A model generated the notes under the pieces. It worked only from the letters and a program-made list of their open reading frames with translations, was not told the DNA's origin and ran no database searches. DNA of 64,000 nucleotides from Escherichia coli (GTDB lineage: Bacteria > Pseudomonadota > Gammaproteobacteria > Enterobacterales > Enterobacteriaceae), in the NCBI RefSeq assembly GCF_013122565.1, contig NZ_CP053258.1. One strand, given 5' to 3'. The first letter of the stretch is position 1, and each line of letters starts with the position of its first letter. A program made the translations under genes and the position numbers. Below are positions 9,889 to 11,950 of the stretch, in pieces.

Positions 9889-9920
9889 GACGGCCTCTGC
9901 GGAGGCCGTCACTCTTTATT
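9889..9920. terminator. Stem-loop between convergent pntB and tqsA (possible bidirectional terminator)
   Basis: GACGGCCTC-TGCG-GAGGCCGTC perfect 9 bp stem followed by T-rich tract. Confidence 0.5.
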
Positions 9921-10857
9921 GAGATCGCTTAACAGAACGGCGATGCTTTGACCTCCCGCTGTTTGTTCAAGCGCAATTTTGACAATAATTGTTAACGGCA
10001 CGGAAAGCAGCATACCCACCGGTCCTAACAACCATCCCCAAAAAATCAACGACAAAAATACCACCAATGTGGAAAGTCCCAGCCCACGCCCCATGATGCG
10101 TGGCTCCAGAATATTGCCGAAGACCAGATTAATCAGCAGATATCCCGCCAGCACCAACAACGCTTCGTAGAAGCCATTAAACACCAGTACCTGAGCGATA
10201 ATCGAGGGCGGCGAGCATCGCCCATGCGACCAGGCCGGTGATGATGCTGATGGCTGTTTTCAGCACCAGATAATGAGACACACTGTCAATCGCACGCTGA
10301 ATCGCCGCCATCCCTTCAACCGGACGCGCCATCATTTGCTGAAATTTTCCGGGCAATTGTGGCACTTCGAGCAGCATAAACAGCACCGTCAGCAGCAATA
10401 AAAATATTGATGACATGGCATTAGATAACTGCGTCAATAAGTTGGTGAGCAACGTCATCGCCGCGTTCGGATCAATGTAATGCGCCAGTTGGTCAACTGA
10501 GACGTCAATCCCTACGCGTTGCAACAACGGCTCAAGAGCTTGCAGCGGCGTCATAATAGAGTTGCGATATTGCGGTAACGTCCGCGTCAACTCGTTGAGC
10601 GCGGAACCCAGATAAGCTAACAGCAACACCATAGCCATCACGATGATGGTCATCAAAATCGACACCGCCAGTACACGCGGCACTCGCCAGCGGACCATGT
10701 GTTGCACCAGCGGGTTAAGAATAACAGCAATAAATAATGCGAGAATAAACGGCACGATGATCTCGGCGGCAAAACGGATACCGCAGAGAATAATGACCAG
10801 CATTCCCAACATAATGACGATTTTTAGGCCATTGAGCGTGATGATCGGCTTTGCCAT
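9909..10857 (-). pseudogene. tqsA: AI-2 exporter TqsA (AI-2E/PerM family) interrupted by frameshift or internal deletion
   Basis: Two collinear same-strand ORFs (10177..10857, 226 aa, and 9909..10184, 91 aa) correspond to N- and C-terminal parts of one transporter; frames switch near 10180-10215. Confidence 0.7.
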
Positions 10858-11268
10858 GCTTGTCCCCGTTTTTTCTTCCTTGGCTAATAATAATGTCTTT
10901 TTCGCTCCGTCATCATAACGAAAATCAAACCGCTCAGGTAAAGAAGTGAAAATATTTTGAGTTAATTCTTAAGCTATGATACAAATCAGGCGTGTTCAAC
11001 TACCGAGGACAATTATCATCCGCGATGACGAGAAGCAACACTGCGGATAATTGTAATATTATGGACAATTTGTTCAGGACGTTATTTTCTACATTTACCC
11101 ATCTTCGTACCTCATCCACTATCTTGCTCGTAGGTGAGCAGCACTGGCGCAACGCGCTTTAGTCCTTTCTTCTGCCAAAGCTTGCGCTAAGCGCGGGGCT
11201 TGACCACTTTACTTTGGTTTCGCTGAATTAAGCGAAAATTAAAATAATTCTCTTGCAGGAGAAGGACA

Positions 11269-11634
11269 ATGTATATTTATTGGATTTTATTAGGTCTGGC
11301 TATTGCTACAGAAATTACCGGTACGCTGTCCATGAAATGGGCGAGCGTCAGTGAGGGAAATGGCGGCTTTATTTTAATGCTGGTGATGATTTCTCTGTCG
11401 TATATATTTCTCTCTTTCGCCGTTAAAAAAATCGCCTTAGGCGTAGCTTATGCGCTGTGGGAAGGTATCGGTATTTTATTTATTACCTTGTTTAGCGTTT
11501 TGTTATTCGACGAAAGTTTATCGCTGATGAAAATTGCCGGGTTAACCACCCTGGTCGCCGGGATTGTGTTGATAAAATCAGGTACCCGTAAAGCGCGTAA
11601 ACCTGAACTGGAGGTGAACCATGGCGCAGTTTGA
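11269..11634 (+). CDS. mdtJ: Spermidine export protein MdtJ (SMR family)
   Basis: 121 aa four-TM ORF; overlaps mdtI start. Confidence 0.9.
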
Positions 11635-11950
11635 ATGGGTTCACGCCGCCTGGCTGGCATTGGCAATCGTGCTGGAAATCGTTGCTAACGTCTTTTTGAA
11701 ATTTTCTGACGGCTTTCGTCGCAAAATATTTGGCTTGCTCTCCCTGGCGGCGGTGCTGGCTGCCTTTAGTGCGCTTTCTCAGGCCGTTAAAGGGATCGAC
11801 TTGTCTGTCGCTTATGCATTGTGGGGCGGGTTTGGTATTGCCGCCACGTTAGCCGCAGGTTGGATCTTGTTTGGTCAACGGTTAAATCGTAAAGGCTGGA
11901 TTGGCCTGATCTTGCTGTTGGCTGGAATGATCATGGTGAAACTTGCCTGA
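11621..11950 (+). CDS. mdtI: Spermidine export protein MdtI (SMR family)
   Basis: 109 aa ORF overlapping mdtJ 3' end, consistent with translational coupling. Confidence 0.9.

Follow-up and report, generated by a model that had tools for sequence, protein, structure and literature searches.

What is the function of an imperfect inverted repeat that lies in the spacer between tqsA and mdtJ of Escherichia coli, ahead of the genes for a spermidine exporter? The repeat was studied in a stretch of 64,000 nucleotides of E. coli DNA (contig NZ_CP053258.1, assembly GCF_013122565.1; hereafter the window, to which all coordinates refer, with the features of the leader on the + strand). MdtJI is the enterobacterial spermidine exporter, and its induction by spermidine has been shown to require both Rho and the translation of mdtU, a 34-codon upstream open reading frame (uORF) that ends 106 nt before the mdtJ AUG; the mechanism was left for further study (Adams et al. 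2021, PMC7815308). An earlier reading of the bare sequence (the sequence-only reading) had placed the repeat at 11011–11052 and had proposed that it is either the binding site of a dimeric regulator or an RNA structure in a long leader. The analysis presented here found it to be a real, conserved RNA stem-loop, which is transcribed and is under constraint for both base pairing and sequence. It appears to be a so far undescribed but conventional cis-acting RNA detail within a regulatory leader that is already known, and not an element of a new kind, and the role tentatively proposed for it is that of a part of the ribosome-binding region of mdtU.

An interrupted hairpin at the start of the mdtUJI leader

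A repeat search returned two overlapping inverted pairs, 11009–11017 with 11046–11054 (9 nt, 100% complementary) and 11015–11023 with 11043–11051 (9 nt, 89%), which together make up a single interrupted helix of 12–13 bp. The arms read ACAATTA(TCA)TCCGC at 11009–11023 and GCGGATAATTGT at 11043–11054, and the repeat is thus wider by 2 nt on each side than had first been claimed; the spacer of ‘about 18 bp’ was about right, the loop being 19 nt long. In the RNA, an outer helix is formed between ACAAUUA (11009–11015) and UAAUUGU (11048–11054), a 3-nt bulge, UCA, interrupts the 5′ side at 11016–11018, and an inner helix between UCCGC (11019–11023) and GCGGA (11043–11047) closes the loop at 11024–11042. 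The hairpin is followed by an A/U spacer of 6 nt, AAUAUU (11055–11060), which holds no Shine–Dalgarno (SD) motif and is predicted to be unpaired, and then by the AUG of mdtU at 11061.

A scan of 10800–11300 for consensus promoters and terminators called neither, and therefore the transcription start site (TSS) of mdtUJI was taken from the literature. Primer extension in E. coli and Shigella has mapped the mdtJI TSS to a G located 278 bp ahead of the MdtJ ATG, which is itself placed at +278 (PMC4636849), and the TSS found by differential RNA sequencing matches it (PMC7815308). As mdtJ begins at 11269, +1 falls at 10992 (11269 − 277), which is a G in the window. The hairpin thus occupies +18 to +63 of the mapped transcript, and it stops 6 nt short of the mdtU AUG and 214 nt short of the mdtJ ATG. 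The sequence-only reading was unaware of mdtU, whose start so close behind the repeat holds the key to what the repeat is likely to do.

The hairpin is predicted to fold with −13.0 kcal/mol (z = −3.1 against its own dinucleotide shuffles, none of 200 of which folded as well), and it is retained in both the minimum free energy (MFE) and the centroid fold of the whole 299-nt leader, with its loop unpaired in all of the leader folds. When compared with the genomic background, the folding energy is nevertheless unexceptional: 26% of all 54-nt windows of the 64 kb, and 9.5% of those matched for GC content, fold as well or better, and it is only through conservation and covariation that the hairpin stands above chance. 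Taken alone, these background figures would suit a chance palindrome of no function in an AT-rich intergenic region, an explanation that is scarcely credible in the light of the comparison that follows.

Conservation and covariation across Enterobacterales

Orthologous loci were gathered by a scan of a genome collection with MdtJ, which gave 80 loci (Escherichia, Salmonella, Citrobacter, Enterobacter, Lelliottia, Kluyvera, Leclercia, Silvania, Kosakonia, Phytobacter, Pluralibacter, Buttiauxella, Cedecea, Erwinia and others), and by protein look-ups, which gave a further seven usable ones from Pantoea, Pseudescherichia, a Yersiniaceae metagenome-assembled genome and an unclassified strain of Enterobacterales. 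A first search for MdtJ homologues returned close relatives only, and it was a second search, started from an Erwinia MdtJ, that brought in Pantoea, Pseudescherichia and others; the loci gained in this way all carry the same A–U variant and so add breadth whilst representing one evolutionary event. From these loci, 79 distinct spacers were used for the identity profile, 57 distinct sequences for individual folds, 64 distinct rows for the alignment to a covariance model and 65 distinct sequences for tests of open reading frames (ORFs). An mdtU-like uORF with the C-terminus GEQHWRxAL is found in 79 of the 80 loci from the genome collection, the sole exception being truncated, and in all seven of the added ones. 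One typical enterobacterial mdtU–mdtJ locus (L054, contig CACSKA010000003.1) is titled ‘Chryseobacterium sp. 18061’, and this assembly is probably mislabelled or contaminated.

The block 10998–11077 is the most conserved portion of the intergenic region, with identities to the window base of 0.85–0.96, which can be compared with 0.73–0.86 for mdtJ codons, 0.46–0.56 for the middle of mdtU and 0.31–0.68 upstream of the promoter; identity in the loop segment 11028–11037 reaches 0.96. Within E. coli, the 411-nt tqsA–mdtJ spacer was found in 5,422 of 5,426 complete genomes, and a 78-nt element is at least 99% identical in 5,041 of these 5,422. A covariance model of the hairpin (R1) found exactly one match in the window and one in each of 64 related loci (E ≤ 1.5e-12), which cover more than 20 genera.

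Folded singly, about 55 of the 57 distinct sequences gave the same two-helix hairpin as their MFE structure, and a bulge or internal loop of 3–4 nt was predicted in most of them. All 64 distinct sequences keep the inner helix paired, in spite of changes at two of its pairs: 11021–11045 is C–G in 61 and U–A in three (Leclercia, Silvania), whilst 11022–11044 is G–C in 56 and A–U in eight (the Erwinia/Pantoea/Pseudescherichia group). In Phytobacter the stem is re-registered as UUCCGCC/GGCGGAA. The ACAA/UUGU pairs of the outer helix are invariant or nearly so, and the indels of this helix are paired, in that all 14 sequences with an additional base in the 5′ arm also have an additional G in the 3′ arm; in one sequence (L086) the seventh outer pair becomes C–G. 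G·U pairs, namely G11009·U11054 in E. albertii and U·G in the genera that bear the insertion, fit an RNA of the + strand only. Mean column entropy is 0.18 bits at paired positions and 0.57 bits at unpaired ones, and a shift of the 3′ partners by one to three columns lowers pairing from 93% to 33–45%. Conservation is not confined to the helices. The bulged A11018 is present in 61 of 64 sequences, and in the loop a core made up of G11027, A11028, G11030, A11031 and AAGCAA (11033–11038) is invariant or nearly so, whilst the edges of the loop vary.

The presence of the hairpin in every orthologous locus examined, at an identity above that of the neighbouring coding sequence, together with compensatory changes, paired indels and the coincidence of its base with a discrete in vivo RNA 3′ end (see below), effectively refutes the explanation by chance. 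The same findings support one of the two proposals made in the sequence-only reading, that of an RNA structure in a long leader: the checks that had been suggested there were the mapping of the mdtJ TSS and the conservation of the repeat across Enterobacteriaceae, and the repeat has proved to be both transcribed and conserved.

Two further pairings of the loop were considered and rejected. A pseudoknot between the 5′ end (GUGUU, 10992–10996) and the loop (AACAC, 11037–11041), which was noticed by eye, was dropped as 11039 (C/T/G) and 11041 (C/A/T) vary without a matching change at 10992 or 10994, and also since the connecting loop would be only 1–2 nt long. Pairing of the loop with downstream parts of the leader (UUGCUCGU near 11124, CUUCGU near 11102, and the pyrimidine tract that follows the mdtU stop codon) was rejected as these targets are poorly conserved or only partly complementary.

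A proposed remote Shine–Dalgarno motif and initiation at mdtU

If the hairpin is real, what does it do for the leader? An SD-like motif, GAGG (11005–11008), directly abuts its 5′ foot and is proposed, from its match to the anti-SD sequence and from its conservation, to be a remote SD of mdtU. A scan for anti-SD duplexes, run over the 72 nt that precede the mdtU AUG, found no SD at the usual distance; in the last 20 nt before the AUG the best candidate is GGAU (−3.3 kcal/mol), which lies 13 nt upstream within the stem and is lost (GCAGAU) where the stem covaries in Leclercia and Silvania. GAGG or its variant GGAG forms the strongest anti-SD duplex of these 72 nt in 54 of the 57 distinct sequences. 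G11005 is invariant, and the five sequences with GGAG in place of GAGG keep the complementarity to CCUCC of the 16S rRNA; this double change is seen in Leclercia/Silvania, Phytobacter and one Pantoea, the number of independent origins not being established. In the linear RNA the motif lies 52 nt before the AUG, whilst once the 46-nt hairpin is folded this distance is 6 nt, and the corresponding single-stranded remainder in other genera is about 5–9 nt, as read from the folds and the alignment. The hairpin occupies the whole gap between GAGG and AUG and ends 6 nt before the latter, and it is therefore a probable aid to the start of ribosomes on mdtU.

These observations point to a split, or non-contiguous, initiation region, in which GAGG acts as the SD and is bridged to the AUG by the hairpin; this is the reading that we favour, at a confidence a little short of even. 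Folding of the nascent leader would loop out 46 nt and shorten the distance between SD and AUG from 52 to 6 nt, whereby the mdtU AUG would come within reach of a 30S subunit that has bound GAGG. Adams et al. (2021) have shown that it is through efficient translation of mdtU that spermidine can relieve Rho-dependent termination ahead of mdtJI, and the hairpin would therefore be an enabling part of a feedback switch for spermidine efflux. Defined in this manner, the ribosome-binding region of mdtU would comprise a remote SD, a conserved stem-loop of 46 nt and the AUG.

Split ribosome-binding sites (RBSs) of this kind have precedents in phage T4, where a hairpin cuts the SD-to-AUG spacing of gene 38 from 22 to 5 nt and that of gene 25 from 27 to 11 nt (PMC3014915, reviewing Nivinskas et al. 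1999; Malys and Nivinskas 2009). As in those genes, the proposed SD of mdtU is too far away in the linear RNA, a conserved hairpin fills the gap, there is no alternative SD at a canonical distance and the layout is kept among relatives. The motif lies beyond the limit of about 15 nt (52 nt), the folded spacing is within the range of about 5–11 nt, a competing SD is missing and the arrangement is conserved (65 of 65 sources). The two cases differ in that some 16–17 nt are looped out in T4, whereas the segment at mdtU has 46 nt, among them a bulge and a loop of 19 nt; in that the loop of the mdtU hairpin is invariant, which is needless in a pure spacer; and in that mdtU is a chromosomal regulatory uORF, its case built on sequence and predicted folds, whereas the T4 examples are phage structural genes. 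In E. coli itself, the initiation regions of rpmE (encoding bL31) and thrS are likewise non-contiguous and contain an operator hairpin (PMC7297116), and here too a highly conserved stem-loop of the 5′ untranslated region (UTR) splits the ribosome-binding region and is at once a part of initiation and a candidate recognition site. In rpmE and thrS, however, the hairpin parts an AU-rich enhancer from an SD next to the AUG, whilst at mdtU it is the proposed SD itself that lies on the far side, and a repressor protein is not known for mdtU. If the split initiation region is real, it would be a chromosomal and unusually large addition to the short list of such regions.

The locus is also that of the published control of mdtJI by a uORF and Rho-dependent attenuation, which has analogues in the speFL and toiL–topAI leaders (PMC7815308), and the hairpin lies directly before the controlling uORF, inside the transcript whose start is 278 nt ahead of mdtJ and which includes the 34 codons of mdtU with their conserved C-terminus. 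The published model deals with the uORF, its C-terminus and the pairing of the mdtJ RBS; the literature that was searched does not discuss the 5′ hairpin, the remote GAGG or the RNA 3′ ends at 11044 and 11054, and the hairpin is unmentioned in the papers found on mdtU, mdtJI and ydgV.

Several observations weigh against a split initiation region. Many E. coli genes start without an SD, and the open A/U-rich stretch before the AUG might suffice. The 46 nt to be looped out are roughly threefold the length seen in the T4 genes, and two sequences have a degenerate form of GAGG (GAAG in L088 and GAGU in L068). Moreover, whilst GAGG and the AUG region are predicted to be mostly unpaired in the nascent leader of 85–110 nt, GAGG is predicted to be paired in the ensemble of the full-length leader (unpaired probability 0.02–0.22), and the model therefore needs initiation to be co-transcriptional. 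With regard to the structure, the high conservation of the sequence leaves few independent compensatory events, about four or five, and RNAalifold on a MAFFT alignment backed only the inner helix of 5 bp; the evidence for the outer helix comes from folds of single sequences and from the model-based alignment, an approach that leans towards the model. Lastly, a plain spacer hairpin accounts neither for the invariant loop core (G-A-N-G-A-R-AAGCAA) nor for the conservation of the bulged A and of the leader's 5′ tail, which suggests a further ligand or contact, and the abundant RNA 3′ ends at 11044 and 11054, both of them ahead of the mdtU AUG, could instead point to a role in processing or decay. 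The last two points each lead to an alternative, and these are taken up in turn.

RNA 3′ ends at the hairpin

In the Term-seq tables of Adams et al. (2021, Supplementary file 1, PMC7815308), two 3′ ends classed as ‘orphan’ map to the hairpin, one at K-12 position 1673716 (M63, 104,182 reads) and one at 1673726 (LB at an optical density of 0.4, 48,661 reads). These tables give strings of 61 nt in which position 51 is the 3′ end, as was verified with the mdtJ+6 end and the sgrS terminator, and coordinates were converted with the mdtJ+6 end as anchor (K-12 1673496 = window 11274). The first end then falls at 11054, the last base of the hairpin, and the second at 11044, within the 3′ arm of the inner helix; both outnumber the Rho-associated mdtJ+6 end (60,096 and 30,332 reads). 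A discrete end at the base of a helix is what is expected of a structure that is stable in vivo, through exonuclease arrest or processing, and from the two ends, stubs of the leader some 53 and 63 nt long are to be expected. The hairpin thus accounts for two abundant 3′ ends that had been orphans.

From these ends it could be argued that the hairpin is an element of stability or decay alone, that is, an exonuclease block or processing mark at which terminated leaders are trimmed to a stub of about 63 nt, with no part in initiation. The read counts are in keeping with such a role, which we nonetheless consider rather unlikely, as a generic barrier needs just a stable stem. The invariant loop, the SD-like motif at the foot, the fixed distance of 6–9 nt to the AUG and a conservation above that of mdtJ coding sequence would all be left unexplained, and as the hairpin begins 17 nt from the 5′ end it is not a protective stem of the 5′-terminal kind. 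An intrinsic terminator or attenuator was also considered for this position and rejected: the terminator scan found none, and the base of the stem is A/U-rich and followed by AAUAUUAUGG, which is not the GC-rich stem with U-tract of such elements.

A possible sensor in the loop

The alternative that arises from the loop is that the hairpin acts as an operator or sensor, in which the loop, and perhaps the bulge, is shown to a ligand in trans (a protein, Hfq with a small RNA (sRNA), or spermidine) that tunes initiation at mdtU. This is compatible with a split initiation region, to which it adds a regulatory input, and we regard it as unlikely, if less so than a role in stability alone. It would explain why the loop core is kept in the 64 distinct sequences whilst its edges vary, and why A11018 is retained. 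Three or four A-R-N triplets (AGA AGC AAC), of the type bound by the distal face of Hfq, can be read in the loop, and the operator hairpins of rpmE and thrS (PMC7297116) show that recognition can be combined with a non-contiguous initiation region. Set against this, literature searches (mdtJ with RIL-seq, mdtU, ydgV) found no interaction of an sRNA, Hfq or a protein at the hairpin, and the candidate pairings of the loop with other segments of the leader showed neither conservation nor covariation. A search of 10700–11500 against Rfam 15 at permissive thresholds likewise gave no family match, the three hits, to unrelated families, being at chance level (E 0.17–7, far below gathering).

With regard to spermidine as the ligand, the mRNAs of the polyamine modulon (oppA, rmf, fis, rpoN and others; Igarashi and Kashiwagi; PMC7177335) are described as having an SD that is distant or obscure, along with a hairpin that bulges out where translation is initiated. 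The structures predicted for mdtU show these features of type 1, and the locus responds to spermidine, so that a polyamine is the relevant signal here as well. In the modulon, however, the SD lies 10–15 nt away, as opposed to 52 nt at mdtU, and Adams et al. favour a sensing of spermidine through stalling of ribosomes at the conserved C-terminus of MdtU, i.e. during elongation or termination (PMC7815308). Two ways in which the hairpin might be more than a passive spacer can be formulated, and taken jointly they are improbable. One is a primary switch that responds to spermidine, where a bulged helix like that of the modulon would set the frequency of starts at mdtU, and spermidine would be sensed at initiation instead of, or besides, the stalling on MdtU. 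The other is that the leader stubs of about 53 and 63 nt would act in trans through the loop, as a small RNA derived from the 5′ UTR. If either is true, the polyamine homeostasis of Enterobacterales would gain a conserved RNA component, be it a sensor or an effector. In either event, the element offers precise mutations with which to locate the action of spermidine, at initiation (the bulged hairpin) or at later stalling (the MdtU C-terminus).

Proposed transcription factor binding at the repeat

The second proposal of the sequence-only reading was that the repeat is the binding site of a dimeric regulator. Stated for this locus, the palindrome would bind a dimeric transcription factor in the DNA downstream of the TSS, AcrR or another such as H-NS, which would act as a roadblock. 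There is published binding to the region: AcrR shifts a 286-bp fragment, 10931–11216, that holds the repeat, although only partially and only at 1 µM (PMC9769551), and H-NS binds here, with a deletion downstream of +1 raising reporter activity (PMC4636849). A site scan with the AcrR palindrome (TACATACATTTGTGAATGTATGTA) returned two sites with 10 mismatches near the repeat, 11042–11065 and 11086–11109, of which the former overlaps the 3′ arm.

This match is weak, with 10 of 24 positions mismatched and 47 equally good sites in the 64 kb, and it is off-centre, its midpoint lying about 22 bp from that of the repeat, so that it covers one arm only; AcrR was rejected as the reason for the repeat on these grounds and because the arms covary. 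More generally, the half-sites of one protein should hold to one consensus, whereas here they change together, with paired indels and tolerated G·U pairs. The arms are separated by 19 bp, and conservation runs evenly through the loop and flanks. The higher reporter activity of the deletion is also expected from the loss of the region of Rho-dependent termination. AcrR being the sole published candidate, with a weak site on the 3′ arm alone, the proposal of a dimeric site is not borne out, and we judge a DNA operator to be very unlikely.

Coding readings across the repeat

Could the conservation be that of a protein? Two coding regions reported from PIRT-seq overlap the hairpin, CDS61 at 10976–11050 (MIQIRRVQLPRTIIIRDDEKQHCG) and CDS62, a long form of MdtU, at 11025–11162, and RefSeq, which labels ‘protein YdgV’ and mdtJ in the tqsA–mdtJ spacer region, gives YdgV 56 amino acids, at 10992–11162, from a GTG at 10992. 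On this explanation it would be CDS61, or a longer MdtU/YdgV from the ATG at 11025 or the GTG at 10992, that is conserved. PIRT-seq does report translation upstream of mdtU and from earlier positions in the mdtU frame (PMC12350097), and Escherichia, together with some Citrobacter and some Enterobacter, retains an uninterrupted ORF for CDS61.

These hypotheses were rejected, as the ORFs are not preserved, indels occur and codon periodicity is missing, and a coding explanation is held to be highly improbable. The ATG of CDS61 lies 16 nt upstream of the TSS, within the extended −10, and its ORF is intact in only 17 of the 65 distinct sequences and ends after seven codons in 37. In-frame stops occur within 24 codons upstream of the mdtU AUG in 29 of the 65, and the in-frame ATG at 11025, which lies inside the hairpin loop, is not conserved, being AAG, CTG or ACG in many sequences. 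Single-nucleotide indels are found in seven columns of the alignment, and neither frame has an excess of change at third positions (0.34–0.42 bits at all codon positions). The GTG at 10992 is the first transcribed base, whilst the start supported by experiment is the ATG at 11061, where a change to ACG abolishes both the mdtU–lacZ fusion and the induction by spermidine (PMC7815308). The PIRT-seq insertion coordinates listed for both regions (about 11039–11041) would remove the 3′ arm, such that the fusions would report on a disrupted hairpin. When the hairpin is disrupted in this manner, AUU 11012 and AUC 11015 fall 3–6 nt past GAGG in the frame of CDS61, which could explain the PIRT-seq signal. 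The hairpin therefore speaks against two small-protein annotations, PIRT-seq CDS61 and the 56-amino-acid YdgV of RefSeq.

Other features of the leader and its surroundings

The order of genes around the repeat is pntB, tqsA, mdtJ–mdtI, ydgD and asr. The probable promoter of mdtUJI, as judged from the sequence together with the published TSS, lies at 10957–10985 and consists of a −35 element TTGAGT (10957–10962), a spacer of 17 nt and an extended −10 element, TG-a-TACAAA (10977–10985), the pattern TGnTAnAAT of which is also kept in other genera. Further upstream, the sequence GTAAA-GAAGT-GAAAA occupies 10938–10952, which is −54 to −40 with respect to the TSS; identity is 0.93 for 10938–10947, and the sequence is also found in Pantoea. 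It agrees at nine of ten positions with the CpxR box, GTAAA(N5)GTAAA. The mdtJ gene belongs to the CpxR iModulon, a peak by ChIP-exo (chromatin immunoprecipitation with exonuclease treatment) not being reported (PMC7657598), and the CpxR-like box may be the explanation of induction at high pH.

The 5′ tail of the leader, GUGUUCAACUACC (10992–11004), is single-stranded; its columns are strongly conserved and it is unpaired in most folds of the segment from the hairpin to the AUG, and it is possibly a standby or enhancer segment. The heptamer GGACAAT recurs three times in the leader, at 11006–11014 (the SD and the foot of the hairpin), at 11063–11070 (codons 2–3 of mdtU) and at 11263–11270 (the RBS and ATG of mdtJ). 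All three copies include GGA, and they could be a shared recognition motif or chance. The mdtU (ydgV) uORF itself occupies 11061–11162, its 34 codons including the stop. Just 3′ of the stop codon lies a pyrimidine-rich segment, GUCCUUUCUUCUGC (11162–11175), which in both the MFE and the centroid fold of the full leader is predicted to pair with the RBS of mdtJ, GCAGGAGAAGGAC (11255–11267), and this agrees with the idea of Adams et al. that the mdtJ RBS is sequestered. The leader controls mdtJ (11269–11634) and mdtI (11621–11950), which together encode the spermidine and multidrug exporter of the small multidrug resistance (SMR) family.

On the other side of the spacer, tqsA (9909–10857, minus strand) is broken near 10194–10200 into two ORFs, 9909–10184 and 10177–10857. 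Relative to the intact tqsA of 1,035 nt in strain RM9872 it has a deletion of about 86 nt, and from its sequence it looks like a pseudogene in this strain.

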